Shown here: piece by piece, positions 6,110-44,588 of the stretch
How positions within the stretch are numbered: the first letter of the stretch is position 1
How the letters are laid out: each line of letters starts with the position of its first letter
DNA from: a virus
Lineage: Duplodnaviria; Heunggongvirae; Uroviricota; Caudoviricetes
DNA: 64,000 nucleotides
Reading direction: 5' to 3' (one strand)
IMG/VR virus record: IMGVR_UViG_3300015360_000028
Coordinates: 1 to 64,000 of that record
Position numbers and translations under genes: made by a program
The notes under the pieces: model-generated
Databases searched by the model: none
The model's input: the letters and a program-made list of their open reading frames with translations, nothing else
What the model was told of the DNA's origin: nothing

Positions 6110-8134
6110 ATGAACTATCTAATACCCGGCGAAAAGAAGTTAGAAGGTTCGCCTGTATTTAAATGCGTCGGCAGAGACGAAGAGCTCAGGGCAATTGCTT
6201 CTGTATTGACTCGCAAACATTCAAATTCAATCATTATTACAGGACCAGGCGGAGTTGGTTGCACAACCATTTGCCTTGGTCTACAAGCATGGAAAGAACA
6301 AAAGGGATGCCCATTCGATATCGCTGTGAAGCGTGTCTTCTGGATGGATTCTGATGGGTTGTTTTCTTCTGGAGATTCTGCCGTTGTTAGCGCAGAGTTT
6401 CTTAAAATAATCTCTGCGCTTGAGAACACAACCGAATCTATTTTGATTATTGAAGACTATACAGACTTTATCAATGCCGCGCGTTCAGGTGGCTACGACC
6501 ATTTTATCAATGCACTCATGAGTGTTGTAAAAAGCAAAAAATCCCAGATGATTTTTGAAGTTAAAGATGATTCATTTGATGTTGCCATTAAATCTCATTC
6601 AGACATGATTGAACTGTTCACTGTAATTGATGTGAAGGAGCCAGGTGAAACGGCTCTAACCTCAATCGTTTCTGACATTTGTATTGAGCTCGGCGGATAT
6701 CATTCAATAGCCGTTGACCCATCGGCTATCGAGGCAGCAATTTCACTCACAACAAAATATAGAGTTTCTTCTAACAGGGCGCAACCAACAAGAAGCATTA
6801 ACTTGATTGATAGTGCTTTGTCAAGTTTCCGCATGGAAAAGCATGCTCTCATTGTTCCAGAAGATGCAAAACTATTAGAAGAAATCTCCATTGAGATGCG
6901 TAACTTAGAAGATCATTCGATCAAACTAAATGATGAGTTGATCACCGAAGATCGCAAGATGGAAGAGAATGCAGGTGAACAAAGGAAATCTCTCCGAGAC
7001 TTCACAAAACTTATGACCGGTGGTGGAGTTGATACAGAAGAAAAACGAGCTATTAAGAGTAACCTACGTGTTGTCGAAGACCAGATTTCTGAGATACGAT
7101 CGAGATATGAAGAAACGGTCGTCAGAATCAACAGAGACATTAAACTCACAAAGGGTGAGGTCACTGCTGAATTCGCTAGGTTGTCCGGGATCCCTGCCGA
7201 AAAACTAAACCAAGACGAGCGCGAAAAACTTCGTAATCTAGAAGCCGCCTTGCTCAAGAGAATATTCGGTCAAGAACATGCCATGAAACATCTGGCGAAC
7301 ATGGTAAAGACTTCGAGAATTGGTCGACGCAATACAAACGCTCCAATGGGTTCTTGCATGTTCCTTGGACCATCGGGTGTTGGTAAAACAGAAACAGCAA
7401 AAGTTCTTTCAGAATATTTAGGCATCCCATTGTTCAGGTTTGATATGTCTGAATATATGGAAAAACATGCCACAGCAAAACTAATCGGTGCACCACCTGG
7501 TTATGAAGGATTCGAAGCTGGTGGTATTTTGACTAATGGCATTCGTCGCACACCAGTTTGCGTATTGCTCTTGGATGAAATTGAAAAAGCACACTCCGAT
7601 GTTTTCAATGTGTTCTTGCAGATTCTAAGCGATGGTCGGCTTACAGATAACGTCGGGCGGGTTATTTCCTTTCAAGACGTCTACGTTATCTGTACGACTA
7701 ACATCGGTCAGGAACATTATCTCAATCCCAAGATTAATTTTGACAAAGCATTGGCTTTGACAATGATGGACTTAGACAAAACTTACAGACCAGAATTTCT
7801 AAACCGTTTCGGTGGTCGCAAAGATATTATTCCGTTTTCTTCTTTGGGTGTTGCAGTAATCGAGAAAATTGTAAACAGAGAACTTGATAGCATCGCTTCG
7901 GCTTATACTAAGGAAAATATTTTCATCGGCCACGCAACTGATGAGATTCATAAGTTCTGTGAAAAGAACTATGACCCACGCACCGGCGCCAGAGGTCTTC
8001 CTGGCCATTTGCGTTCTACTCTAGAACCACTCATTGCTGATATGGCTCTAGATAAAGAAACTGAAGATAAGTTGGCTTTGAGTATTGTTTACGATAAAAA
8101 GACTTGTAACTTAATCGTTCATAAAGAAGGGTAA
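6110..8134 (+). CDS. ClpB/ClpA-family AAA+ ATPase with middle coiled-coil domain; NBD1 Walker A degenerate
   Basis: NBD2 has GPSGVGKTETAK, LLLDEIEKAH and ARGL. A ClpB-like M-domain is followed by the RIFGQEHAMKHL sensor region. NBD1 P-loop reads GPGGVGCTT, with the lysine replaced by cysteine. Confidence 0.7.
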   Translation: MNYLIPGEKKLEGSPVFKCVGRDEELRAIASVLTRKHSNSIIITGPGGVGCTTICLGLQAWKEQKGCPFDIAVKRVFWMDSDGLFSSGDSAVVSAEFLKIISALENTTESILIIEDYTDFINAARSGGYDHFINALMSVVKSKKSQMIFEVKDDSFDVAIKSHSDMIELFTVIDVKEPGETALTSIVSDICIELGGYHSIAVDPSAIEAAISLTTKYRVSSNRAQPTRSINLIDSALSSFRMEKHALIVPEDAKLLEEISIEMRNLEDHSIKLNDELITEDRKMEENAGEQRKSLRDFTKLMTGGGVDTEEKRAIKSNLRVVEDQISEIRSRYEETVVRINRDIKLTKGEVTAEFARLSGIPAEKLNQDEREKLRNLEAALLKRIFGQEHAMKHLANMVKTSRIGRRNTNAPMGSCMFLGPSGVGKTETAKVLSEYLGIPLFRFDMSEYMEKHATAKLIGAPPGYEGFEAGGILTNGIRRTPVCVLLLDEIEKAHSDVFNVFLQILSDGRLTDNVGRVISFQDVYVICTTNIGQEHYLNPKINFDKALALTMMDLDKTYRPEFLNRFGGRKDIIPFSSLGVAVIEKIVNRELDSIASAYTKENIFIGHATDEIHKFCEKNYDPRTGARGLPGHLRSTLEPLIADMALDKETEDKLALSIVYDKKTCNLIVHKEG

Positions 8135-10790: not shown

Positions 10791-11696
10791 ATGAATCCCT
10801 TTGTGAAATATGGTATTTACGCCGTGTCAGCACTGGCACTGCTTGCAGTGGTTTCTGGCTGCTTCTACACAATTGATGAAGGTGAGCGTGGTGTTGTTCT
10901 TCGCTTCTCGTCCTTCCAAAAAGTTGCTGAACCAGGTTTGGGAGTTAAGATTCCATTCATCGAGCGTGTTCAACGTGTTTCAATTCGCGAGCATGTTGTT
11001 CGCTATGGATCTGAACAAGATCCAAAAACAGATCTCCAATCTTATTCTTTTGACCAGCAACCAGCCGGCATCCGTGTATCGGTGAACTACACAGTTCCCG
11101 CCGGCAAAGTTGAAGAAGTCTACAGGAAATTCAGAACCGTCGAGAACATGGAAGCGACAATTTTGTCGACAAGAATTCTCAAGGCAACCAAAGAAGTGTT
11201 CGGCCGTTATACTGCAACGAAGGCAATTCAAGATCGTACCAAGTTAGGTGCCGACATTACTGAAAGGCTCCAAGAACTCGTCGGCGACGAGCCTATTGTA
11301 ATCATTGCCATCCAGGCTGAAAACGTTGACTTCTCTGGACCATACGAAGAATCAATCGAAGCCCGCATGCAAGCCGAAATTGAAGTGCAGAAGATTACCC
11401 AAAATGCACTTGGTGAAAAAGTGAAGGCTCAAATCACAGTTATACAAGCGCAAGCGGCGGCAGATGCCGTCGTGGCCGGCGCAAAAGCATCGGCAGAATC
11501 TACAAGGCTCAAAGGTGATGCAGAAGCATCAGCAATTCGCGCCAAGGGATTGGCACTGGCCGACAACCCAGCACTTGTAGCACTTGTGTCGGCCGAAAAA
11601 TGGAACGGTGTATTGCCAACGACAATGATACCGTCGTCGGTTGTTCCATTCGTAGACGTCTCGAAGAAAGAGTTGGCATTGCCAGCTAAGGAATAA
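10791..11696 (+). CDS. SPFH/band-7 (stomatin/prohibitin/HflKC) domain protein
   Basis: N-terminal TM helix, then YTIDEGERGVVLRFSSFQKVAEPGLGVKIPFIERV (SPFH core). C-terminal Ala-rich coiled coil. Confidence 0.7.
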   Translation: MNPFVKYGIYAVSALALLAVVSGCFYTIDEGERGVVLRFSSFQKVAEPGLGVKIPFIERVQRVSIREHVVRYGSEQDPKTDLQSYSFDQQPAGIRVSVNYTVPAGKVEEVYRKFRTVENMEATILSTRILKATKEVFGRYTATKAIQDRTKLGADITERLQELVGDEPIVIIAIQAENVDFSGPYEESIEARMQAEIEVQKITQNALGEKVKAQITVIQAQAAADAVVAGAKASAESTRLKGDAEASAIRAKGLALADNPALVALVSAEKWNGVLPTTMIPSSVVPFVDVSKKELALPAKE

Positions 11697-19955: not shown

Positions 19956-20049
19956 ACAGGCCGAACGAAGAGAGGACTGTACTCGAACGAAGAGAGAGAC
20001 TGTAGTGGGGAATTAATACACAGGCCGAACGAAGAGAGGACTGTAGTGG
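19956..20049 (+). repeat. three direct repeats of a 5'-UTR/RBS/start-codon segment
   Basis: 19956-19981 is identical to 20020-20045. A degenerate copy sits at 19982-20008. The last copy supplies GAGG plus the GTG start of the first paralog. Confidence 0.7.
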
Positions 20050-20393
20050 ATAAATTTTTTTATGATTTTATAATGGGCTCACCCGAAGCCGCCCGTTTCT
20101 TCCCTAATCATTGCTATCTCTCTAACACAGGCAAACGCTATTACGCTAGACAAACCGCGATGCAATATTATATCGGGGAAAATATACTTATCTGCCAGGA
20201 AATACTAGGGGATGCACCTATGCTGCCATGCACCGATGTGGTTGTTTCAATGGCAAAAAGATTGTTCAGCACAATCAATGGTTACGAATTCGTCCAAATA
20301 AGTGCTGGACGATTCACCACTGCCGTCCCAAATGAATATCTGGGAAGATGCATACATCGTGAAGTCATCTTCTCTGAAGAATTGCTAAGATGA
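20046..20393 (+). CDS. paralog family member 1 (IM-xPE-FFPG-YY family), GTG start
   Basis: N-terminal motif FIMGSPEAARFFPNHCYLSNTGKRYY is shared with the next six ORFs. Confidence 0.55.
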   Translation: MDKFFYDFIMGSPEAARFFPNHCYLSNTGKRYYARQTAMQYYIGENILICQEILGDAPMLPCTDVVVSMAKRLFSTINGYEFVQISAGRFTTAVPNEYLGRCIHREVIFSEELLR

Positions 20394-20692
20394 CAATCAG
20401 CACATATGAATTAATGTCGCTGGGTGAGTATGACGTATTGTTTCCCGGCTGCTGGTATAAGTCAGATCTGTTTGAATTCTATATTCATCCTTTGTGGGAA
20501 CAGCAATTTATACATTCAAATCATATCCTCATTGCTTCCTTGAAGAATTTTCATATGTATGATTTCTACTTTGATAAAATTTCTGGACATCAACATCAGC
20601 AAGAAAAATTAAGGCGCTTTCCCTTATTCTATCCTGTTCCACATGGCGAGAATCCAATTGTCATCAAACACAAGCATATGGTGGGAATGTGA
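20390..20692 (+). CDS. paralog family member 2
   Basis: ELMSLGEYDVLFPGCWYKSD; ATGA overlap with neighbour. Confidence 0.5.
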   Translation: MTISTYELMSLGEYDVLFPGCWYKSDLFEFYIHPLWEQQFIHSNHILIASLKNFHMYDFYFDKISGHQHQQEKLRRFPLFYPVPHGENPIVIKHKHMVGM

Positions 20693-21075
20693 AATACTTA
20701 GATGAAGTCATGCAGATGCCAGAGAGCATGGCGTTCTTCCCGGGAAGCTATTATATATCTTTTCAAAAAGGTATAGTCTACACCAGACCTCTCAGTTGTC
20801 AAGAATATATCAAAAAAGGTATATTGATTTGTGCCAAGAAACCTTATGGTGGAGACTGGTTCGCGAGTGAAGACTGCCATTATTGCCTCTATTCAGGAGA
20901 CCATTTGCGGGTTAAATATAATGCCTTCGATAGAATAGTGTCTTCGTGGGTCGATCTATACGCAAACAATGACAGATTAATTGGTGCTTCAATTTCAGGA
21001 TTGATGTTAAGCGATGCGGTTCACGTCATCGCACAACACACGAAGCTTCCAGAAGATTGGAGGATGCAATTATAG
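20689..21075 (+). CDS. paralog family member 3
   Basis: EVMQMPESMAFFPGSYYISFQKG. Confidence 0.55.
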   Translation: MKYLDEVMQMPESMAFFPGSYYISFQKGIVYTRPLSCQEYIKKGILICAKKPYGGDWFASEDCHYCLYSGDHLRVKYNAFDRIVSSWVDLYANNDRLIGASISGLMLSDAVHVIAQHTKLPEDWRMQL

Positions 21076-21112
21076 TAGATAAACCAGCAGCTCTTTTTTA
21101 TAAGGATTTGAA

Positions 21113-21439
21113 ATGACGTTTCTTTCGGATATTATGGGAGGGCCTGAGGGGAGTGGGTTCTTCCCTGGAACTTATTATTATGACCAAGCGGGATGCGTCC
21201 ACAAAGTATTGGGAATCCATAAGCAGAGATTTCTGAAGAGGCATAAAGTTTTAATTTCTCATCCCATAGCATTCAGAAAAATGGAAATGCATGTCATCTC
21301 GGTTGATACGTTTTGGAGTTGCTTTAATGGAGTCGCCGTCGATCCAGTCGCAATCACAGAAACAACGACAGAATTTTCTTTAGGTCATTCAAGAATTCAC
21401 TTGAATAGGATCTACGTTCCTGTTAAATATCCATGTTGA
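21113..21439 (+). CDS. paralog family member 4
   Basis: DIMGGPEGSGFFPGTYYYDQAG. Confidence 0.55.
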   Translation: MTFLSDIMGGPEGSGFFPGTYYYDQAGCVHKVLGIHKQRFLKRHKVLISHPIAFRKMEMHVISVDTFWSCFNGVAVDPVAITETTTEFSLGHSRIHLNRIYVPVKYPC

Positions 21440-21630
21440 CACCTTATGAAATCATGCCGATGCCTAACGGCAGAAATTTTTCCAAGGAAAGATGTATGTC
21501 TATCATAGAAGGCGTCTGGGAAGTCAGATGGATCCTGAGAAATACCTTCTTGTCACAGTAAGAACATATTGAAAGAAAGAAGAAACTGTAATATAATAGA
21601 GTTTCAAATCAATCAACAATAAGAAGATTA

Positions 21631-22014
21631 ATGTCAGCGACGTTGGAGCAGATCATGAGCCTGCCAGAAGAAACTAGATTTTTTCCAGGGCAATATTACA
21701 AATCAAACAAAGGTAAAGCCTACAGACTTAATTCTTTTTATCCTCCTCATCCCCCTGAAAGCATAGCTGCTAATGTAGCACATGGCCAAAGCATGACAAT
21801 CAGTGGCGCTGGCCGTAAATGCTATTGGAATATGGTAAATGGAAAAGAAATGAAACGAAAATTCAACTCAACAGGTGCGCGAACTTTCTTCTATAGTTAT
21901 ATTGAAAGAGGTTATGTTGGCAATGGTGTTGAAATTTTAGGAGAGGCAGCTCATCCCAATGACGTCTGGAGAGAAGATCAGAAAAAAATCGTTAGACTTG
22001 AGTACCCTCACTAG
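21631..22014 (+). CDS. paralog family member 5
   Basis: QIMSLPEETRFFPGQYYKSNKG. Confidence 0.55.
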   Translation: MSATLEQIMSLPEETRFFPGQYYKSNKGKAYRLNSFYPPHPPESIAANVAHGQSMTISGAGRKCYWNMVNGKEMKRKFNSTGARTFFYSYIERGYVGNGVEILGEAAHPNDVWREDQKKIVRLEYPH

Positions 22015-22300
22015 CGCTAATCTTGCAGATATAATGGCATGTCGCTCGAGCACGTTCATTTTTCCAGGGATGACATATTTTTCTTCAAGAGGCAACGAAT
22101 ATTACACCCTATTAATGAAAGAACAAATCTACTATAAGAGTAGAAATATATTTATTGCCGAGGGGGCCCATCTTTATGGTCAGTGCTTTTTCGATTCTAT
22201 TACAGGGAACCGTATGCAGCAGACTCTGATTCCAAATATTTGTTTTAAAGTCATGGTTTTTGGAGAGGCCGGAAGAGAGCACATAGGAGAGGGGTATTAA
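21959..22300 (+). CDS. paralog family member 6 (start uncertain: ATG 21959, TTG 21998 or ATG 22034)
   Basis: DIMACRSSTFIFPGMTYFSSRG. It shares the C-terminal FDSITGNR motif with member 7. Confidence 0.5.
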   Translation: MTSGEKIRKKSLDLSTLTSANLADIMACRSSTFIFPGMTYFSSRGNEYYTLLMKEQIYYKSRNIFIAEGAHLYGQCFFDSITGNRMQQTLIPNICFKVMVFGEAGREHIGEGY

Positions 22301-22303
22301 ACA

Positions 22304-22612
22304 TTGAGTAATCTATATTCGTTGATGGGTTGCCCCGAGTATCTTAGATTCATCCCTGGCCTCTGTTATGTCTCAGAAAGAGGATATGAGTATTATGTAT
22401 ATCAAATCGAGAAGCAATACCATTTGCCTCTCTTCGTACTAAAAACTAGAGTAGCAACCGGTATTGATAACGTCTTTTGGGATTCTATTACAGGGAAAAG
22501 GCTAGTCACAAACAAAGCAGCGACCTACTTTTCAGGCATGAAAATAGTCGACAAAGATTTTGATTGCTTAAAAGAGATTAGTAAAAATCAAGTTGATATT
22601 TTCGCCGATTAG
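22304..22612 (+). CDS. paralog family member 7, TTG start
   Basis: SLMGCPEYLRFIPGLCYVSERG and WDSITGKR. Confidence 0.5.
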   Translation: MSNLYSLMGCPEYLRFIPGLCYVSERGYEYYVYQIEKQYHLPLFVLKTRVATGIDNVFWDSITGKRLVTNKAATYFSGMKIVDKDFDCLKEISKNQVDIFAD

Positions 22613-22643
22613 TGTATATTTTAACTTTCAGGAGTATTGTTAA

Positions 22644-23345
22644 ATGTTCAGTCGCTATTTTTATGGTGGATCAGAGGCCTTTCAAGAAATGATCCTGGTC
22701 CTTTTTTTCTGTTTTATCGGCTTCTTTGTTTATGGTTATGGCCAGCATGTGTTCTTTGAATATACGCCATCGTGGCAGGAATACATTGCAGTCGTAACTG
22801 GATTTGCTTGCGTATGGTTGACTAGAACTGAAAACGTCTGGTGTTGGCCGCTTGGAATTATTTCAACCATTTTGCTAGGCTTTTACTTCCTCAAGATCAG
22901 TTTGTTCGGACAAGCAGGGCTTCAGTTGATCTATTTCACGCCAATTCAATTTTGGGGCTGGCATGTTTGGGTCAATGGCGGGGAAGCAAGAACGAACATT
23001 AAAATTTCAACATTGGGTGCCAAAGAATGGGTTGGGCTGTTCATTGCATATGTTATAGGCTTCTTAATTCTAAGAGGCGTTATTGAAAGCCAGTTTGCCT
23101 CGCCGCAAATGGTAGCGTGGGATGTGTCAGTCGTTGTGGCTTCAGTTATAGCGCAGATTCTACTGTCTTACAAAAAGATCGAGTCGTGGTACTGGTGGTT
23201 TTTGCCGGTGAACGTCTCAGCAATAGGTCTTTATTATGTCGTAGATTCTCCCATGACAGTGATATTGTATGTCGCATATCTGCTCAATTGTGGTTATGCA
23301 ATATACGAATGGAGAAAAGAATTTGCTAAACAGCAACAAAACTAG
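22644..23345 (+). CDS. pnuC: nicotinamide riboside transporter PnuC
   Basis: 233 aa, Trp-rich multi-TM protein. QFWGWHVW, WYWWFLPVNVSAIG and NCGYAIYEW resemble PnuC signature regions. Confidence 0.7.
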   Translation: MFSRYFYGGSEAFQEMILVLFFCFIGFFVYGYGQHVFFEYTPSWQEYIAVVTGFACVWLTRTENVWCWPLGIISTILLGFYFLKISLFGQAGLQLIYFTPIQFWGWHVWVNGGEARTNIKISTLGAKEWVGLFIAYVIGFLILRGVIESQFASPQMVAWDVSVVVASVIAQILLSYKKIESWYWWFLPVNVSAIGLYYVVDSPMTVILYVAYLLNCGYAIYEWRKEFAKQQQN

Positions 23346-24354
23346 CGGTCTACTAATCGGTAAATTCATGCCTCTTCACAAAGGGCATGAAAATCTGATT
23401 TCTTTTGCGGCTTCGATGTGTTCAGAATTGAGATTGATAGTCTGCACACAGCCAGGCGAACCTTGGGCAGATTTAAGGCAAGATTGGGTTTCATATTATT
23501 GTAAATCGCTCAACACCAGATGCAATATCTATGTAGCCCGCATCCATAAGAAGATGCCGCAGTTGCCAGAAGAATCGAAACAATTTTGGGAGTCGTGGCT
23601 TCATGAACTTAGATACTGGTCTGATGTTGACTATGTTTTCGCTGGTGAAGGATATGGCAAAGAATTAGCAGCTCAATTGAATGCTAAATTTTTGCCGATG
23701 AATGGCAACCGTGATGTTATCTATAACGTCTCAGCAACAGTGATTAGAGAAGATAGAGCAATCTATAGCTATCATCATGTTTCAAAATATGCTTTGAAGG
23801 ATTTGTGTTACAGGATTGCAATCGTTGGACCAGAAAGTTCAGGGAAGACAACCTTAGCACAAGAGCTTTGTCAAGCATTTGAAAAACGATATAAATTGCC
23901 GGTAATTCAATATGGAGAATATGCTCGGACATACCTTGAATATCATGGACCTGAAGTGAAATCTGATATGATGATTGATATACTCAATGGCAATAGAGCA
24001 GGATATGAGAACTCAAGAAACAATCCCGGCGTGATAAACATCTTCGACACAGATAGTTTAACGACTAAGATATGGTTTGAATTCTTTGATGGCAAGAGCA
24101 CATCACTTGCGGATGACTTTATAAATAAAGAAAAGTATGACTTGACACTTATGGTCAGAGACAACATACCATTTCAGCCAGATCCTATGCGATACGGCGG
24201 TGATAAGAGGCAGTTGTCTTTTGAACACTTTGCTTCGATCTATCAAAAATATAATAGAAAATTTACCGTGGTCGATCAGGAGGGTTCTTTGCATAATCGC
24301 ACAACGTTTGCAACTGATCTTATTACCAAGAAATATCTAGATAAGGCCTTCTGA
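23269..24354 (+). CDS. nadR: NadR-like bifunctional NMN adenylyltransferase / ribosylnicotinamide kinase (no HTH domain)
   Basis: The NMNAT motif is GKFMPLHKGH. A C-terminal kinase P-loop reads VGPESSGKTT. The likely real start is TTG 23323, which follows a GGAG RBS. Confidence 0.7.
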   Translation: MSHICSIVVMQYTNGEKNLLNSNKTSGLLIGKFMPLHKGHENLISFAASMCSELRLIVCTQPGEPWADLRQDWVSYYCKSLNTRCNIYVARIHKKMPQLPEESKQFWESWLHELRYWSDVDYVFAGEGYGKELAAQLNAKFLPMNGNRDVIYNVSATVIREDRAIYSYHHVSKYALKDLCYRIAIVGPESSGKTTLAQELCQAFEKRYKLPVIQYGEYARTYLEYHGPEVKSDMMIDILNGNRAGYENSRNNPGVINIFDTDSLTTKIWFEFFDGKSTSLADDFINKEKYDLTLMVRDNIPFQPDPMRYGGDKRQLSFEHFASIYQKYNRKFTVVDQEGSLHNRTTFATDLITKKYLDKAF

Positions 24355-24420
24355 GTAAGCTGGTTAATACGATGCCCCGACACGGCATAAGATTGGGTTC
24401 GATTCCCGAAGAAGACACCA
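24346..24420 (+). tRNA. tRNA-like element (Val GAC-like), weak D-arm, C at position 33; possible pseudo-tRNA
   Basis: Acceptor gccttct/agaagac has one mismatch. Anticodon stem atgcc/ggcat with loop ccGACac. T-arm ttgggttcgattcccga. CCA. It overlaps the nadR stop codon. Confidence 0.4.
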
Positions 24421-24581
24421 ATAAATGAGAGATAAAGAATGTACGTTTTAGCAATTATTATTCCAATCCTAAGTTCCACCTTTACAGCGTCTTATGATGA
24501 CTTGAAGACATGTGAAACTGTAAAGGTGAAGCTAGAAAACTTCGCTAAAACACAAGGCAAAGTCGTTATCAAAATCGGCGA

Positions 24582-25445
24582 TTGCACAAAAATATGACAG
24601 CAGACATAAGAGTCCAAGTCGGCAATCCAAACGTTCCAAGTGATTTGGAAAATTTTAAGATATCAAGAAGTGACACGTTGACACTCATCGCCGGCCCATG
24701 CCAAATGGAATCAAGAGATCATTGCTTTATGATCATCGACAAACTCTTGGAAGTGACACAGCATTATAAGGTTCCATTCGTGTTCAAAGCGTCGTTTGAT
24801 AAAGCAAACAGAACAAACATCTCAGGCGTTCGTGGTATGGGCTTAGAAAAGTCTATGGAAGTATTTCATGAAATAAAACAGAACTATAAGATCCCGACCA
24901 CAACCGACATCCATGAAGTTTATCATGTTGATGTGGTTAAGCCGGTAATTGACATCATCCAGATTCCTGCGTTTCTTTCTAGACAGACAGATCTTTTGAT
25001 TGAAGCTGCTAAGTCAGGAAGAGTTGTGAACGTGAAGAAAGGTCAGTTCCTTGCTCCTTGGGATATGAAGAACGTTGTTGAAAAGATAGTTGAGTCTGGA
25101 AACAATCGAGTTCTTCTAACTGAAAGAGGAGTGACATTCGGTTATAATTCTTTGGTGGTTGATATGAGATCACTTCAAATTATGGCAGAGATGCAAGTTC
25201 CTGTTATATTTGATGCAACACATTCAGTTCAATCTCCAGGCGGGAATGGAACCTCTTCTGGAGGTGAAAGGAAGTTTGTTCAAACATTAGCAAGGGCAGC
25301 AGTAGCAACTGGTCATGTTTCGGCGGTGTTTCTTGAGTGTCATCAAGATCCAGACAACGCACCATCAGATGGACCTAATATGCTTCATTTAGATAGCGTA
25401 GAAGATCTTCTAGAACAGCTCTTGGCAATTAAAGAAGCAACTTGA
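24582..25445 (+). CDS. kdsA: 3-deoxy-8-phosphooctulonate (KDO-8-P) synthase KdsA
   Basis: LIAGPCQMES, FKASFDKANRTN, IPAFLSRQTDL and VIFDATHSVQ match KdsA signatures. Confidence 0.8.
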   Translation: MHKNMTADIRVQVGNPNVPSDLENFKISRSDTLTLIAGPCQMESRDHCFMIIDKLLEVTQHYKVPFVFKASFDKANRTNISGVRGMGLEKSMEVFHEIKQNYKIPTTTDIHEVYHVDVVKPVIDIIQIPAFLSRQTDLLIEAAKSGRVVNVKKGQFLAPWDMKNVVEKIVESGNNRVLLTERGVTFGYNSLVVDMRSLQIMAEMQVPVIFDATHSVQSPGGNGTSSGGERKFVQTLARAAVATGHVSAVFLECHQDPDNAPSDGPNMLHLDSVEDLLEQLLAIKEAT

Positions 25446-25472
25446 CATTCATTCATTTTCAAGTTATAAATA
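25442..25472 (+). promoter_or_regulatory. promoter TTGACA-N17-TATAAATA
   Basis: ttgaca at 25442-25447 overlaps the kdsA stop. tataaata at 25465-25472. Confidence 0.6.
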
Positions 25473-25498
25473 ATGGTAGACAAAAAGGGTCCTACCAG

Positions 25499-26653
25499 AT
25501 GCAAAAGTTTACAGAATTTCTTAAAGAAGAGACAGAAGCCGACAAGATGATCGGCTTGGCCGCTTACATGAGAACGGTTCGTAGCTCAGCAGATACAGGA
25601 AGTTATGCAGCCGGAAGGTTGAGCGCCCATGCTCCCGTCCTTGATGAAAGAATTAAAGAACTCGACGACTACTTTTCGAAGAAGGAAATCTTCGCCGTTC
25701 AGTTGGGTGCAATCGCAGACACACTCAAAAGTTTCTACGAAGGTATTATGGACGGCATCATCAGCTCGGCGACATTCATCGATTGGATGCACACAGTTGA
25801 AGATCGCACAGCGCCAATTGACTTCGTCAATGAACTCTATTATGGAAACAGAACTTTAACCGGCGCAGCAGGTCAGCTGAAGCGAGTTGAAAAATGCCTT
25901 CAAAAGTTTCCACGTGAAGAGATACTTTTGAAGATCAAAGAATGCGCCGCGGTTGGTGTAATCATTAAAGAAAAGATCGACCGGATGAAGCCATTCGTAA
26001 AGAAGGGCAGAGTTCCAAATCAAAACGCCATACCTAAGTTCTTACCAACGTTCTCCCGCGATGCACATAAGCAGTGCGTTGTTATGTTCACGGCACAGAT
26101 TGAAAAGATCAGAGCCGAACATACCAAAGCAATTTATGATTTGTATGTAAGGCAAGCAGAGCCATTGATGAAGACTTGGATCGGGGTTGACCCCGAAGAA
26201 ATGAGAAAGCATTGGAAGCAGATCCAACCATTTCAAGATGTTTGGAATAACATTCGTAACAACGAAGGCTCTAGATCGTATTACGAACCGATTGAATTCC
26301 ATACTGATTGGCGCTCGAGATTGATGGCCAAAGTAAAGCGTGATGTTCAGATCGTTTACGATCGTTACATTCTTAAGAACGCAGGCAAACTTGCCGCGAT
26401 CATCGACAACAAAAAAGAGTCGCCAACAGTAGACGATAGAGTTTGGCGTAACGGCATCGTAATTGAAAGTTCAATGAAGATTTCATTTTCGGATGGATCT
26501 CATTTTACAATGAATAATAGCATTGAGTGGGCAGTTTCAACTAGAGGTACAGAGTTTGTTCGCTTGCCAACCAGGTTCTCAGAAGTTATTATGGCGGACG
26601 GCAATAGAATGTCGCAACCGTCAGAAGAAAAAATGAATAAAGAATTTAAATAA
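25499..26653 (+). CDS. hypothetical protein
   Basis: The track start at 25442 lies upstream of the promoter -10 element. ATG 25499 (MQKF) is the first start downstream of it. Confidence 0.45.
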   Translation: MQKFTEFLKEETEADKMIGLAAYMRTVRSSADTGSYAAGRLSAHAPVLDERIKELDDYFSKKEIFAVQLGAIADTLKSFYEGIMDGIISSATFIDWMHTVEDRTAPIDFVNELYYGNRTLTGAAGQLKRVEKCLQKFPREEILLKIKECAAVGVIIKEKIDRMKPFVKKGRVPNQNAIPKFLPTFSRDAHKQCVVMFTAQIEKIRAEHTKAIYDLYVRQAEPLMKTWIGVDPEEMRKHWKQIQPFQDVWNNIRNNEGSRSYYEPIEFHTDWRSRLMAKVKRDVQIVYDRYILKNAGKLAAIIDNKKESPTVDDRVWRNGIVIESSMKISFSDGSHFTMNNSIEWAVSTRGTEFVRLPTRFSEVIMADGNRMSQPSEEKMNKEFK

Positions 26654-28690: not shown

Positions 28691-29527
28691 ATGAGGATCC
28701 CCATGACTGCGAGAAACTTCGGCGTCGAAATCGAAGCATACAATCAATTCGGATTCGGCCCTGATAGGGTATCAAAGATTCTAAAGAAGAATAAATTCGA
28801 TCGTTGGAACGTAGAAGATGATGCCTCTCTCGAAGATGCTGAAGGTGGTTTTGAAATACAAACTCCCATCTTGAAATACAATAAGAATTCTATTGAGGCG
28901 CTCAGAAAAGTTTGTAGAGTGTTGAAGCAATATTCAGCATATGTAAATAGTTCATGCGGCCTCCATGTTCACATCGCGTCTGATAAACTTTCCGATAAAG
29001 ACAAATACAACATCGTGAAAAGATACGCAAGATTTGAGAAAACCTTGGATCTGTTCATGACCGAGAATCGTCGCACTGATGATAATAGCTGCGCCGGATC
29101 TGTGATGGATATCATCGGCGATGCGAAAGAAAGTTTCTATTATGGTGATGAAGAAGAGTATTGGGATTCTGCAACGTCCTCTTTTAAAAGACAAAAAATT
29201 AAAGACAAAGAAGAACTTTTACATAAATCAGTTGTTGCTGGTATTGAAAACGATAAATACTTGAAAGTGCATGGTTCTAGCCATGGAACTTTGGAATTTA
29301 GACATCATCATGGAACAGTTGATGAAGATGAAATCGCGATGTGGGTGACCTTCTTACATGCTTTCATTAATGCTTCTATCGTGAAATATAAAGGAAGAGA
29401 TTCGCTTTGGCGTGGCATTCCTAAAGACGTGAAGAAATATTATCTTAAGAAGAAGAAGTTTTATGACGAAATCTACCCACAACCTACAGCCAGAAGAACT
29501 AAGAGACATCCAAACAGAGATCGATGA
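28691..29527 (+). CDS. amidoligase-family protein (phage-type Amidoligase_2), paralog of 43272..44588
   Basis: FGVEIEAY, CGLHVHI and GTLEFRHHHG are shared with the second amidoligase. Confidence 0.6.
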   Translation: MRIPMTARNFGVEIEAYNQFGFGPDRVSKILKKNKFDRWNVEDDASLEDAEGGFEIQTPILKYNKNSIEALRKVCRVLKQYSAYVNSSCGLHVHIASDKLSDKDKYNIVKRYARFEKTLDLFMTENRRTDDNSCAGSVMDIIGDAKESFYYGDEEEYWDSATSSFKRQKIKDKEELLHKSVVAGIENDKYLKVHGSSHGTLEFRHHHGTVDEDEIAMWVTFLHAFINASIVKYKGRDSLWRGIPKDVKKYYLKKKKFYDEIYPQPTARRTKRHPNRDR

Positions 29528-32475: not shown

Positions 32476-33375
32476 ATGTTCGGACAAAATGAAATAGTCG
32501 GTAAAGGCTATTTTAAAGACGCAAAAGACGAAAATCTTCTTGTCACTTCAATGTTTATGACTCTACAGGGCGAAGGCCCTTACAGAGGTCAACCAGCATT
32601 CTTTATTAGATTAGCGAAATGCAACTTAGCTTGCAGCTTCTGCGACACCTATTTTGATTCTGGCGATTGGATGACATTCAACGAGATCGAAGCCAAAATT
32701 GAAGACACAATCGATAAGTTCTATCACTCACGGAATAAAGACCGCCCTGAGTGGACTAATCACTTTGATTGGATGGAAACCCACAAAGAAGAGAAAAGAT
32801 ACGACAAGAAGAAAATGGTACTGGTCATTACAGGAGGCGAACCTTCGCTTCAAAAGAACCTAGCGCCATTCTTAGACAAGATGAAAAACGTTTTCCAAAA
32901 CACTCAAATTGAGTCAAACGGAATTCTAACTCTTGACCTTCCAAAAGAAACCACAGTTGTGGTATCGCCAAAATGTTCTGAGAAGAACGGTCAAGCGGTA
33001 AAATACTTGACCCCTTCATTTAATATGTTGGAGCAGGCAGCTTGCTTGAAGTTTGTTATGGAAGCAACTCCAGGAAGCCCTTATTCAGATATACCTGATT
33101 GGGCACATTCATGGGCAAAAAGAACTGGAAAACAAGTTTACATTTCGCCAATGAACATATATAATAAGGCACCTGAAAAGGCAAAAACAGACAGACTTTC
33201 TAATAAGACAACGATGGACGATAGATCAACTATCGAAGAAGTAATTTCCTTCTGGACTCCTGGGTTGTTGAACATGAAGGCAAATCAAGACAATCACGAA
33301 TATGTCGGCAACTTCTGTGTTCAGCACGGATACATTATGAACTTGCAGATTCACTTATTCGCAAGTCTAGCGTAA
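32476..33375 (+). CDS. queE: 7-carboxy-7-deazaguanine synthase QueE (radical SAM)
   Basis: LQGEGPYRGQPAFFIRLAKCNLACSFCDT matches the QueE radical-SAM cluster. Confidence 0.7.
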   Translation: MFGQNEIVGKGYFKDAKDENLLVTSMFMTLQGEGPYRGQPAFFIRLAKCNLACSFCDTYFDSGDWMTFNEIEAKIEDTIDKFYHSRNKDRPEWTNHFDWMETHKEEKRYDKKKMVLVITGGEPSLQKNLAPFLDKMKNVFQNTQIESNGILTLDLPKETTVVVSPKCSEKNGQAVKYLTPSFNMLEQAACLKFVMEATPGSPYSDIPDWAHSWAKRTGKQVYISPMNIYNKAPEKAKTDRLSNKTTMDDRSTIEEVISFWTPGLLNMKANQDNHEYVGNFCVQHGYIMNLQIHLFASLA

Positions 33376-36260: not shown

Positions 36261-37400
36261 ATGTCCAAGAAAATAAATGTAGCTATTGTCGGAGTCGGCA
36301 ATTGCGCGAGCTCACTCGTTCAGGGTGTAGAATATTATTCGAAACGTGATCCAATGAATGTCCCAGGCGTTATGATGCCTGTGATCGGTGGTTATACCAC
36401 CCACGATATCAATTTCGTTGTTGCTTTCGATGTTGATAAAAGAAAGGTCAATAGACCTCTTAAAGAAGCAATATATGCGAAACCAAATTGCACACTGATT
36501 TTTGAACCGAACGTTCAATCAATGGCACCTGTTCTTATGGCCCCTGTGCTTGATGGTGTAGCACCTCATTTCGCCGACGAACCAGAAGACAGAGCGTTTC
36601 GTGTTTCAGACGAAGCGCCGGTAAATGTTGTTCAAGCATTGATCGATCACAAAGTCGACATTCTGATCAACTATTGCCCAGTCGGTTCTCAACAAGCCAC
36701 TGAATTTTATGCAAACGCCTGTCTTGAAGCTGGCATTGCATTCTTAAACTGCATACCGGTATTTATCGCCTCAGATCCAGTTTGGGAACAAAAGTTTATC
36801 GACAAAGGATTAGTTCTAATTGGCGACGACATGAGAAGCCAGTTCGGTGCAAGTATTTTGTCAGCGGTTCTACAGCAATTGGCTATTGAAAGAGGCCATG
36901 TGATTAACTGCCACATTCAAACGAATGCAGGTGGCAACACTGACTTCTTGAATATGGTTGATAAGAGCAGATTGAAATACAAGAAAATTTCGAAGACGAA
37001 TGTTATTAGAGCACAAAGCAAGATTCAGAATTATGTAGATAAGCCTGATTCAATTCATGCCGCTCCAAGTGAATACATTGCTTACTTGAACGATAACAAA
37101 GTCGCAAACTTCAGACTAGAATTAGAAGGGTTTGGCGGATCTCCAGTTACTTTGGATGCCAGACTTTCAGTTATCGATTCCCCGAACTCTGCCGGCGTTG
37201 TAATTGACGCACTGAGATTTCTCAAGGCAGCGCAGGAACTAGGAGTCGTTGGCGCCCTCAGAGGTCCAAGTGCGTGGACCCAAAAGACGCCACCTATTGA
37301 CATGAAGCCAGCAGACGCTAGATTAGAATGCGTTGCGCTTGCAGAAGGTCGCCTAACAGAGCTCACTAAGAAGCAATTGGGAAAAGTAAGTGGCAAATAA
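36261..37400 (+). CDS. ino1: myo-inositol-1-phosphate synthase (Ino1 family)
   Basis: AIVGVGNCASSLVQGVEYY, FVVAFDVD, PVFIASDPVW, GGNTDFLNM, KISKT and DSPNSAGVVIDA resemble, from memory, the mycobacterial/bacterial MIPS sequence along its whole length. Confidence 0.85.
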   Translation: MSKKINVAIVGVGNCASSLVQGVEYYSKRDPMNVPGVMMPVIGGYTTHDINFVVAFDVDKRKVNRPLKEAIYAKPNCTLIFEPNVQSMAPVLMAPVLDGVAPHFADEPEDRAFRVSDEAPVNVVQALIDHKVDILINYCPVGSQQATEFYANACLEAGIAFLNCIPVFIASDPVWEQKFIDKGLVLIGDDMRSQFGASILSAVLQQLAIERGHVINCHIQTNAGGNTDFLNMVDKSRLKYKKISKTNVIRAQSKIQNYVDKPDSIHAAPSEYIAYLNDNKVANFRLELEGFGGSPVTLDARLSVIDSPNSAGVVIDALRFLKAAQELGVVGALRGPSAWTQKTPPIDMKPADARLECVALAEGRLTELTKKQLGKVSGK

Positions 37401-37764: not shown

Positions 37765-38240
37765 TGGATAGAGAGTTATTCCCTTACATCTATTTCAGTA
37801 ATTCTAATCCAAGTGCTAAGGAGCTTTCGCTTCTGGTGTTGGAATGTAGATTTGAGGATATGTGGAAATGGCAGAATAAATGGAACGTCTGCGTAACCAC
37901 ATCAAAAAACCTCAATGAGGAAGCAACTTTTAATTGTGCTCCCGACGGGATTCCGTTTATAATAAAGACAGATGTAGTTTTTGCTTTTGATGTCTTACGA
38001 CATTTCGAGAGAGATAAGAGAATCAGCTTCATCACAAATATTCTAAACTCAGCTGCTAAATACTTGGTTATCGGAGCAGGCACTCATGATTACACACCGA
38101 AGAGTTGGCATAGTTTCATAAAAGAATCATTTGAAGATGCCATGGTTTTTGGGGCAGACTACGATATTGAAACAAAAATGTTTAATATAATTTCCGAAGA
38201 TTACAATGGTTCTCATTACGCAGTTATCAAGAAAGAATAA
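37758..38240 (+). CDS. hypothetical protein
   Basis: 160-aa ORF. Confidence 0.4.
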   Translation: MLMDRELFPYIYFSNSNPSAKELSLLVLECRFEDMWKWQNKWNVCVTTSKNLNEEATFNCAPDGIPFIIKTDVVFAFDVLRHFERDKRISFITNILNSAAKYLVIGAGTHDYTPKSWHSFIKESFEDAMVFGADYDIETKMFNIISEDYNGSHYAVIKKE

Positions 38241-39159
38241 GATGTTAGATTTTGCAAAGCAAATAGAAGATGCGGTTAAGAACAACACCGTAATAGAAGA
38301 CTCCACTGGCCATTACTTCTTGAAGAAGCAGTTGCTAGATGTTATGCTGGATTTCCCCGAGAAGCCAAAAGATTTCAAGGTTGATATCGTAAGACCAAAA
38401 ACTTATGACCAGACATTCCTAGTAAGCGGCGGCGCTGATTCAACAATCATGTGGGAGCTTAACAATAAAGAAGCCGGCACTAAGATTGGCATTTATGTTG
38501 ATCTCGGGCACGGGTACACCAAGAAAGAAATTGGAGCATTGGAAATGATGGAAATGCCACATATCATTGTTCCTTATAAACTCAAGTTTGACGCTTTCTG
38601 GAAACATATCATCCCCACTCGGAACTATGTTCTTCTCTCAATAGCTGAACAATACACTTCGCATGAAGGCGAGATTTGGCTTGGAGCAGTAGAAGGTGAA
38701 TCGGCGAACGACGCCGGAGATAAGAGTGAATTGTTCTTTAAATTGTTTGAAGAACTCGTTTGGAGAACCAAGCGCAAGAAGGTTACAATCAGAACTCTTA
38801 AAGACAAGACCAAGAATGCTTGGTTGAAATGGTATATGGACAACACTCCCGCAGAAAAAGGTGTTGATATCTTAGACACCATAACATGCTTTGATGGAGC
38901 ATCGGCCAAACCTTGTGGAAAATGTCAAGCGTGTGTTCGTAAATGGATTAGCATGAAGTATTGTGGCGTATCTGACGCAAAGATCCCTTTGATGTTTGAA
39001 GTTCATCCATATGATGGGGGTCAAGAATATATCGTGAAATACAAAACACAGATGCAATTGGCTATAGACAAAAATGATTTCACTCATTATAGTAATAACA
39101 GATGTATTGAAGATTTGAGTGTCATCACAGACGAAGAAGTAAGACGGATGGTCGGTTGA
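38206..39159 (+). CDS. queC: 7-cyano-7-deazaguanine synthase QueC
   Basis: PP-loop FLVSGGADST. C-terminal CGKCQACVRKW zinc motif. Confidence 0.75.
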   Translation: MVLITQLSRKNKMLDFAKQIEDAVKNNTVIEDSTGHYFLKKQLLDVMLDFPEKPKDFKVDIVRPKTYDQTFLVSGGADSTIMWELNNKEAGTKIGIYVDLGHGYTKKEIGALEMMEMPHIIVPYKLKFDAFWKHIIPTRNYVLLSIAEQYTSHEGEIWLGAVEGESANDAGDKSELFFKLFEELVWRTKRKKVTIRTLKDKTKNAWLKWYMDNTPAEKGVDILDTITCFDGASAKPCGKCQACVRKWISMKYCGVSDAKIPLMFEVHPYDGGQEYIVKYKTQMQLAIDKNDFTHYSNNRCIEDLSVITDEEVRRMVG

Positions 39160-43271: not shown

Positions 43272-44588
43272 ATGAAGTTCGGTCTAGAGTTGGAATTACT
43301 TATTCCTTACCACAACTATGCTTTCAAACTCATCGTGAATAAGTTAGAGGCACTTGGTGTTAAAATCAAATGGGAAGGATTTTCCCATAGCACCGCAGCA
43401 CATTGGAAGTTGGTAACTGATGCTAGCGTAGGAAAAGAAGGATTTGTCGGATATGAATTGGTTAGCCCAATTCTCGAAGATACAAAAGAGACATTCGAAG
43501 AGATCGCAAAGATCTGTAATGGCTTGATTGAAATTGGATGTATTGTTGATAAATGTTGTGGCCTTCACGTTCACATTAATGCTTCCACTATAACACTCAC
43601 AGAAGCCAAAATTATCTACAAAAGATATCAGATGCACGAAGCAAAAATTGACTCGTGGATGCACGCCTCAAGACGTGCTAACGAGGCACAGCATTGTCGT
43701 ACAATCGTTTCACAAAACATTAACGAATCGGCTAAGACGATTGATTCATTAACTTCGAACAGATATTATAAATTGAACTTGAAATCTTTCGTGGCATATG
43801 GTACAGTAGAGTTTAGACATCATGCTGGTACGCTTGATTCTCAAAAAATCATTTATTGGATTATGTTCATTCGGGGCTTTATGAAGTCCTGTCGTGAAAC
43901 CTATGTTCAGCAGAAGAAATCGTTCGAAGAGAAAGAAAAACTTCTGAAAGTAACAAAGAAGGCTTCATTGGCAAAAGTCGATAGAACATTTACTGACAAG
44001 CTATCTCATGAAATTCTAGATGAGTTGGTTCCAACTTTTGAGTCAAAAGTCAAATTCAAACACATGCTGAAATTGATTGAGTATTGGCAGACTCAGAGAG
44101 AGAAGATTGTCAACAACGATGCGACCGCAAATATGTCAGTGAGTTTGACTTCAAGACAACTAAGGAAATTGAATTTCAGATCAATAAACGCCAGAAAAGC
44201 GTTAGGGATGGCTCACACCACGAACGCCATAAGTACCTTCCAAAACGTTCTTGATAACTTGTCTTGGATCGCATCAAACTCAAGAGAGATTTCGAATCAT
44301 CCACAGTTGGGTATGGATTATCCATATTACGTGTCATATGATTATGTTATGGAAAAGACAGTTTTGATCGTGCTGCCGCATATTTACGCAGCACTAAAAC
44401 AGATTTGTGAAAGCCGTCATTCGGTTTTAACACAAAAGAAGCTCGGCCTATGGGGCCCAGCTTTGCTTGGTAATTTTGATAAGGCTCCTATTACCATTGA
44501 AAGAAACGACGATCTATTCAGATCGATCGAACCCTACGTCAGGAACTTCTACGTAGAACGAATGGAAGATCTTAGAAATGCAGCTTAA
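43272..44588 (+). CDS. amidoligase-family protein (Amidoligase_2)
   Basis: FGLELELL, CCGLHVHINAS and GTVEFRHHAGTLD resemble the amidoligase signature. Confidence 0.65.
   Translation: MKFGLELELLIPYHNYAFKLIVNKLEALGVKIKWEGFSHSTAAHWKLVTDASVGKEGFVGYELVSPILEDTKETFEEIAKICNGLIEIGCIVDKCCGLHVHINASTITLTEAKIIYKRYQMHEAKIDSWMHASRRANEAQHCRTIVSQNINESAKTIDSLTSNRYYKLNLKSFVAYGTVEFRHHAGTLDSQKIIYWIMFIRGFMKSCRETYVQQKKSFEEKEKLLKVTKKASLAKVDRTFTDKLSHEILDELVPTFESKVKFKHMLKLIEYWQTQREKIVNNDATANMSVSLTSRQLRKLNFRSINARKALGMAHTTNAISTFQNVLDNLSWIASNSREISNHPQLGMDYPYYVSYDYVMEKTVLIVLPHIYAALKQICESRHSVLTQKKLGLWGPALLGNFDKAPITIERNDDLFRSIEPYVRNFYVERMEDLRNAA

Follow-up and report, generated by a model that had tools for sequence, protein, structure and literature searches.

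A divergent pnuC–nadR-like gene pair, probably of the NARP3 type, in an uncultured T4-like phage

Phage pathways that rebuild nicotinamide adenine dinucleotide (NAD+) have been described as NARP1, which uses Adps and Namat, and NARP2, which uses NadV (NAMPT) and the NMNAT-Nudix protein NatV (Osterman et al. 2024, bioRxiv 10.1101/2024.02.11.579819). Their substrates are ADP-ribose plus nicotinamide or nicotinamide plus phosphoribosyl pyrophosphate, and neither pathway has a transporter. The same study (Discussion and Fig. S3) noted that phage NadR is usually in an operon with PnuC and predicted this operon as a possible third way of reconstituting NAD+. Yan et al. (Sci Adv, Aug 2026, PMC13464706) named the pathway NARP3 and described the T5-like phage pair Bas30_86/Bas30_87, in which Bas30_87 imports nicotinamide riboside (NR) and Bas30_86, which carries no helix-turn-helix (HTH) domain, converts NR to nicotinamide mononucleotide (NMN) and then to NAD+. 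NARP3 rescues from Sir2-HerA, crystal structures are available (9X6H and 9X6F), and a BLAST search with the Bas30 operon placed the pathway mostly in Enterobacteriaceae phages (PMC13464706). This study analyzed a DNA stretch of 64,000 nucleotides (the window; positions 1 to 64,000 of IMG/VR virus record IMGVR_UViG_3300015360_000028), in which a pnuC gene is overlapped by a nadR-like gene. The pair is a divergent further example of NARP3 and not a new pathway. A first-pass annotation of this DNA had set the route apart from NARP1 and NARP2, and the route corresponds to the published NARP3; the novelty that this implied does not hold, given that the pathway is already published and its genes are routinely annotated in phage genomes.

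By tblastn, 733 phage records contain a NadR-like gene and 82 a PnuC-like gene, and PHROGs already holds both families. Annotated pnuC–nadR pairs occur in the Caulobacter phages CcrBL9 (gp343/gp344), CcrSC, C1, C2, and others, in the Sinorhizobium phages phiM7, phiM12, phiM19, and phiN3, in the Lysinibacillus phages LysYB1 and LysYB2, and in the Ochrobactrum phage vB_OspM_OC (p119/p120). These annotated pairs were the best phage tblastn matches for both window proteins, at approximately 30–34% identity. In the Caulobacter, Sinorhizobium, and Lysinibacillus phages, the pair is ordered as in the window, with pnuC upstream and both genes on one strand; the genes overlap by 4 nt in CcrBL9 and are separated by gaps of approximately 100–450 bp in the others. 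Most of the phages carrying annotated pairs are jumbo phages (>180 kb), and the genomes of the Lysinibacillus phages are approximately 144 kb. In vB_OspM_OC, which has the terminase closest to that of the window (45.6% identity), adjacent NadR and PnuC genes are accompanied by NadV and NatV (PMC7139368), whereas no other NAD gene was seen in the window.

The two genes of the window are as follows.

22644 to 23345, plus strand: pnuC, encoding a PnuC-family transporter, putatively for nicotinamide riboside, of 233 aa with eight predicted transmembrane (TM) helices (profile, PHROG, PDB, and AlphaFold2 evidence).
23323 to 24354, plus strand: nadR-like gene, encoding an HTH-less NadR-like enzyme, putatively bifunctional (NMN adenylyltransferase, NMNAT, and ribosylnicotinamide kinase, RNK), of 343 aa from TTG 23323 or 352 aa from the alternative ATG 23296.

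The NARP3 prototype is the Bas30_86/Bas30_87 pair of Escherichia phage TrudiRoth and T5-like Epseptimavirus phages. Like the prototype, the window pair is phage-encoded and comprises an adjacent, co-oriented PnuC-family transporter and HTH-less NMNAT–RNK enzyme with equal catalytic motifs, located in an accessory region rich in tRNAs. The T5-like phage has an SPFH gene 263 bp upstream of its pair, whereas the SPFH/band-7 gene of the window (10791–11696) lies approximately 11 kb upstream of pnuC–nadR. The differences are modest: identity to the prototype is 26% for the enzyme and 20% for the transporter; the order is reversed, with an overlapping pnuC–nadR here and nadR–pnuC there; the lineage is T4-like here and T5-like there; and several docking-derived contact residues differ. 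The features that distinguish the window pair, namely its low identity, divergent enzyme, reversed order, PnuC insertion, and overlap of nadR with a tRNA-Val gene, leave the expected mechanism unchanged.

The first-pass annotation had described a Trp-rich importer of the PnuC type with 7–8 TM helices, and its coordinates for this plus-strand open reading frame (ORF) agree with ours. The protein contains 13 Trp residues (5.6%) and passed the curated cutoffs of Pfam PF04973 (NMN_transporter; 132.7 bits, cutoff 27.3) and the NCBIfam equivalog TIGR01528 (69.1 bits, cutoff 42.45); it scored below the cutoff of the enterobacterial subfamily model NF011926 (50 against 335). It also matched phrog_1880, "PnuC-like nicotinamide mononucleotide transport" (E=2.4e-30), and the sequence of the N. 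mucosa PnuC structure 4qtn (E=1.4e-12). The AlphaFold2 models of both window proteins were built on alignments of 29 or 30 sequences. That of PnuC (pLDDT, the predicted local distance difference test, 90.4) has eight long helices, and a Foldseek comparison with the PDB returned the 4qtn chains as the only significant matches (E=1.2e-08, TM-score 0.67). The modeled fold is a seven-TM core plus an N-terminal TM helix, resembling 4QTN. Identity to characterized PnuC proteins is 20–29%.

The second protein matched TIGR01526, the NadR NMNAT model (E=7e-44), NF005988, the trifunctional NadR model (E=6e-30, model positions 61–404 of 411), and phrog_3462 (E=8.6e-51). Among sequences of solved structures, Bas30_86 (9x6f) was the best match (E=2.3e-17), and H. 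influenzae NadR (1lw7) was also recovered (E=6.8e-17). For this gene and for pnuC, these E-values exclude a chance family match. The AlphaFold2 model (pLDDT 88.9, predicted TM-score 0.85) consists of two alpha/beta domains and matched E. coli NadR (8x7f; E=1.4e-20, TM-score 0.75), followed by 1lw7 and L. lactis NadR (6gyf), with TM-scores of 0.64–0.75; single-domain thymidylate kinases and archaeal NMNATs ranked lower. The HTH domain is absent, as the first-pass annotation had stated: the protein has at most approximately 21 residues ahead of the GKF motif, and its alignment to NF005988 starts only at model position 61 of 411.

The nadR-like frame is open on the plus strand from 23269 to 24354, and its start was examined by comparison with L005, a 73% identical relative from another assembly. 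The longest ORF, which begins at ATG 23269, was rejected because L005 has a stop codon at the same place. The ATG at 23368, which is the gene-caller start behind the protein P0001 and also the start in the L005 annotation, was rejected because the conserved SGLLIGK codons upstream of it carry five synonymous differences. These two observations place the start at either 23296 or 23323. Both codons are conserved in L005, and a GGAG sequence located 8 nt upstream of TTG 23323 is identical in the window and in L005. The gene therefore overlaps the 3' end of pnuC by 23 nt (TTG 23323) or 50 nt (ATG 23296), in line with the overlapping start that had been noted previously. The overlapping frames suggest that PnuC and the NadR-like protein are co-transcribed and translationally coupled.

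To assess catalytic competence, the enzyme was aligned with Bas30_86, H. influenzae NadR, CcrBL9 gp344, and metagenomic homologues, and the residues studied in Bas30_86 and Bas30_87 (PMC13464706) were mapped onto the window proteins. The motifs were located as follows; Walker A, Walker B, and LID are used as defined for NadR in PMC7221760.

23187 to 23213, plus strand: Pnu-family ligand-binding motif in TM6 of PnuC, WYWWFLPVN, with WxxW(x)4N in place of WxxW(x)3D/N.
23359 to 23388, plus strand: NMNAT nucleotidyltransferase signature GKFMPLHKGH, of the (H/T)xGH type; P17, G21, and H22 invariant.
23731 to 23748, plus strand: second NMNAT motif SATVIR (ISxTxxR type); T139 and R142 invariant, S137 nearly so.
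23827 to 23853, plus strand: Walker A motif (P-loop) of the RNK domain, GPESSGKTT; G169, E171, S172, G174, and K175 invariant across 10 and across 29 homologues.
24043 to 24054, plus strand: Walker B region of the RNK domain, FDTD; D242 and T243 invariant.
24178 to 24210, plus strand: LID region of the RNK domain, PDPMRYGGDKR; D287 and R290 invariant, R296 nearly so.

Both domains that the first-pass annotation had read from the sequence, an N-terminal NMNAT domain with GKFMPLHKGH and a C-terminal P-loop RNK domain with GPESSGKTT, were thus found where it had placed them. It had named loss of the catalytic His or of P-loop residues as an observation that would speak against its reading; in the alignment, the catalytic His of HxGH (H19/H22) and K175 are conserved. 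The aromatic NMN-stacking residues W89 and W92 are conserved in the window enzyme, as is the equivalent of Bas30_86 W90, which stabilizes NMN according to PMC13464706. Equivalents of Bas30_86 K10, F11, P84, F110, and D275 are likewise retained: K14 and F15 of the window enzyme correspond to K10 and F11, which were mutated in that study, and D273, located just upstream of the LID, corresponds to D275, which was reported to be essential. In PnuC, Q102 and N190 correspond to the NR-contacting residues Q94 and N180 of Bas30_87. The Pnu-family ligand motif is defined as WxxW(x)3D/N (PMC5749112); W182, W185, and N190 are conserved in both of our alignments (A2 and A7), and the spacing in the window is x4, not x3. 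The one-residue insertion that produces LPVN is common only to the closest relatives (P0033 and P0035–P0037), and this subclade also has an additional N-terminal TM helix of approximately 30 aa.

In its two-domain fold and motifs, the enzyme resembles bacterial NadR (H. influenzae 1LW7, E. coli 8X7F, and L. lactis 6GYE), and the transporter resembles N. mucosa PnuC (4QTN) in its eight-helix fold and in the presumed logic of NR import and metabolic trapping. Compared with these bacterial proteins, the pair has no N-terminal HTH repressor, is phage-encoded, and shows 22–29% identity; E. coli carries pnuC and nadR at different loci. Absence of the HTH is also a feature of H. influenzae-type, L. 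lactis, and phage NadR-like enzymes.

Both genes are under strong purifying selection. In the comparison with L005, the ratio of nonsynonymous to synonymous substitution rates (dN/dS) was 0.08 over 325 codons of nadR and 0.06 over as much of pnuC as was available, with synonymous sites saturated. The gene order is also conserved. The arrangement pnuC–nadR–tRNA-Val–52-aa ORF–kdsA was found again in two independent assemblies, L005 and L009, the latter from a different run and encoding an identical PnuC. In a more distant contig (L006), three small ORFs lie between pnuC and nadR, and in a metagenomic phage contig (L002), nadR precedes pnuC. The tRNA gene adjoining the pair was identified as follows.

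24346 to 24420, plus strand: tRNA-Val(GAC), predicted by ARAGORN and matching Rfam RF00005 (40.2 bits).

The final 9 nt of the nadR coding sequence lie within this gene, so that the Ala-Phe-stop codons form most of the 5' acceptor strand, with the stop codon at 24352–24354. The same tRNA-Val begins 1 nt past the nadR stop codon in L005, and the gene is also present in L009. In the window, maturation of the tRNA 5' end would sever the nadR message ahead of its stop codon.

The window derives from an uncultured T4-like phage, and the pair is located in an accessory, tRNA-rich region of it. The phage marks of the window include a T4-type large terminase (PF03237/PF17289), a gp2-like DNA end protector (phrog_429), T4 RNase H, and PhoH; 15 tRNA genes were detected, and nearly all genes are on one strand. 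The terminase shows no more than 45.6% identity to that of any sequenced phage, the best match being vB_OspM_OC, followed by cyanomyoviruses. A megablast search with positions 22000–25500 against 50,697 phage records returned no match, indicating that the phage is not a sequenced isolate. A scan of IMG/VR with the enzyme, an exact look-up of its gene-caller version P0001, and two metagenome scans, one with protein patterns and one with an exact 44-mer, also found nothing. Domains of the NAMPT/NAPRT, Nudix, PRPS-like, NadD/E, Sir2, and ADP-ribosyltransferase types were sought with Pfam (E<=1e-3) in the window ORFs of >=60 aa, and none was detected. Over this stretch, the pair therefore does not belong to a larger set of NAD genes, and the PRPS-like, NAMPT, and Nudix markers of NARP1 and NARP2 are among the genes not found there.

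These findings, by analogy with the characterized homologues, suggest with a probability of approximately 0.8 that the pair is a two-gene NR salvage module of the NARP3 type that would convert NR to NMN and NMN to NAD+. PnuC would reside in the host inner membrane and admit external NR by facilitated diffusion. The C-terminal P-loop kinase domain would then phosphorylate NR to NMN and thereby trap NMN in the cell, as in the metabolic trapping described for NadR (PMC7221760), and the N-terminal (H/T)xGH nucleotidyltransferase domain would adenylylate NMN with ATP to yield NAD+. We rely on homologues for the specificity towards NR, for the two enzyme activities, and for the physiological role of the pair. 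That role would be the supply of NAD+ during infection, including when Sir2-HerA, Thoeris, or DSR hydrolyses NAD+. The first-pass annotation had likewise proposed that the pair turns external NR into NAD+ and could offset NAD-depleting defences; this proposal agrees with what was shown for the homologous Bas30_86/Bas30_87, and for the window pair, the activity and any anti-defence role are put forward by homology.

Several observations weigh against this interpretation. The enzyme failed the curated cutoffs of both NadR models (TIGR01526, 150.3 against 341.15 bits; NF005988, 104.7 against 201 bits), and we therefore refer to it as NadR-like and not as an equivalog. For calibration, the validated Bas30_86 also fails TIGR01526 (270.7 bits) but passes NF005988 (253.2 bits), and CcrBL9 gp344 scores 241 and 136 bits, respectively; of the enzymes scored with NCBIfam models, that of the window diverges most. 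Docking or mutagenesis in Bas30_86 points to several residues that are changed here (E80 to H, G89 to F, S112 to G, D115 to G, and E230 to Y), N45 of Bas30_87 is replaced by G in PnuC, as it is in 4QTN, and the ligand motif WYWWFLPVN carries its one-residue insertion. In addition, S37 of Bas30_86 corresponds to C in the window enzyme. Most of the nonconserved Bas30 positions vary too in H. influenzae NadR or N. mucosa PnuC. Finally, the anti-defence role of NARP3 has been demonstrated only by heterologous expression and not in the native phage (PMC13464706, Discussion).

It is possible, although we hold it tentatively, that the same biochemistry serves general metabolic support and not counter-defence, as an NAD+ top-up for a large phage that reprograms metabolism. 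Such a role has been proposed for the NadV/NatV pathway of KVP40 and for NAD-jumbo phages, and the literature reads phage NAD genes as metabolic augmentation (PMC11662467, PMC7139368). In PHROGs, the category of both families is "moron, auxiliary metabolic gene and host takeover," and the window is rich in auxiliary metabolic genes, encoding KdsA, myo-inositol-1-phosphate synthase, FolE, QueD, a QueC-like protein, a radical-SAM enzyme, glycosyltransferases, ThyX, glutaredoxin, and PhoH. However, no NAD-consuming phage enzyme was visible in the window, in which the DNA ligase is ATP-dependent (PF01068) and no ADP-ribosyltransferase or Sir2 domain was found, and NARP3 homologues rescued phages from Sir2-HerA (PMC13464706). 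Counter-defence and general NAD+ support are not mutually exclusive and are not separable computationally. The extra PnuC helix and motif insertion, the unusually divergent enzyme, and the reversed order could, although this is improbable, reflect a version of NARP3 that was assembled independently and has shifted in function; its substrate range might then be changed, for example to nicotinic acid riboside or NMN, and its expression might be tied to tRNA-Val processing, in that RNase P cleavage at the 5' end of the tRNA would strip the nadR stop codon from the message.

It is quite unlikely that the transporter carries another substrate, such as thiamine, riboflavin, or possibly other nucleosides, with the NadR-like enzyme acting only on intracellular NR or NMN. 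The Pnu family does include several specificities, such as PnuT for thiamine and PnuX for riboflavin (PMC5749112), and both the 20–29% identity to characterized PnuC proteins and the insertion and extra helix of the subclade would accommodate such a shift. Nevertheless, the protein passes the cutoff of the PnuC equivalog TIGR01528, the last residue of its motif is Asn, which N. mucosa PnuC and Bas30_87 also have, whereas PnuT has an Asp required for thiamine binding, and Q102 and N190 match NR contacts of Bas30_87. The gene is also translationally linked to that of an NR kinase, the classic metabolic-trapping partner. The subthreshold NCBIfam scores of the enzyme, together with some best homologues on bacterial-looking contigs, could be taken to indicate an inactive or decaying passenger taken over from a host, or a window that is bacterial and not phage. 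This explanation is very improbable: dN/dS values of 0.06–0.08 at saturated synonymous sites led us to reject decaying passenger genes, every catalytic motif is preserved, the two structure models are of high confidence, and the T4-type terminase, gp2-like end protector, T4 RNase H, 15 tRNAs, and near-uniform strand argue for a phage. An NR salvage module of the NARP3 type remains our preferred interpretation of the pair.

The pair adds a distant, uncultured T4-like example to NARP3. Together with the Caulobacter, Sinorhizobium, Lysinibacillus, and Ochrobactrum pairs, it places NR-based NAD+ reconstitution across many phage lineages and in both gene orders. Its use lies in surveys of counter-defence and auxiliary metabolic genes, and it opens no new question.

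The region upstream of pnuC was also inspected. An AGGAG sequence occurs at 22630–22634, 9 nt before the ATG, and the following element precedes it.

22593 to 22620, plus strand: candidate sigma-70-like promoter, TTGATA-16-TATATT, upstream of pnuC (consensus scan, 10/12 matches; a consensus match only and not evidence of function).

No NAD+ or pnuC-type riboswitch and no other Rfam family was detected upstream of pnuC (gathering score or E<=1). Directly upstream of the gene, at 20046–22612 on the plus strand, is a tandem array of approximately seven small paralogous ORFs (100–128 aa) with a common N-terminal motif, (I/L)MxxPExxxFFPGxxYxSxxG. These ORFs matched neither Pfam nor PHROGs, and the array is also present in the Logan contig L009. 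The 15 tRNA genes are dispersed among small ORFs at 1–28700 on the plus strand. Neither PnuC nor the NadR-like protein matched the PADLOC defence models.

Downstream of nadR, kdsA (24582–25445, plus strand) encodes 3-deoxy-8-phosphooctulonate (KDO8P) synthase (402 bits on NF003543, cutoff 242) and is kept in this position in L005 and L009. KdsA is rare in phages: 14 of the 50,697 records matched, only approximately four of them at >39% identity, including Acinetobacter phage MD-2021a, an uncultured huge phage, and Synechococcus phage S-SCSM2R. The gene implies a Gram-negative host, and tampering with lipopolysaccharide synthesis is possible. Genes of the 7-deazaguanine (queuosine-precursor) type, including those at 32476–33375 and 38206–39159 on the plus strand, encode GTP cyclohydrolase I, PTPS/QueD, a QueC-like protein, and a radical-SAM enzyme, and point to base modification of the phage DNA or of the phage tRNAs. 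Further unusual accessory genes on the plus strand (6110–8134, 28691–29527, 36261–37400, and 43272–44588) encode a ClpB-like AAA+ protein, two Amidoligase_2 proteins, and myo-inositol-1-phosphate synthase; the ClpB-like protein also matched the PADLOC candidates PDC-M37B and DolB. Elsewhere in the window are a MotA/ExbB-like ORF and a GapR-like DNA-binding ORF, the latter hinting at an alphaproteobacterial host.

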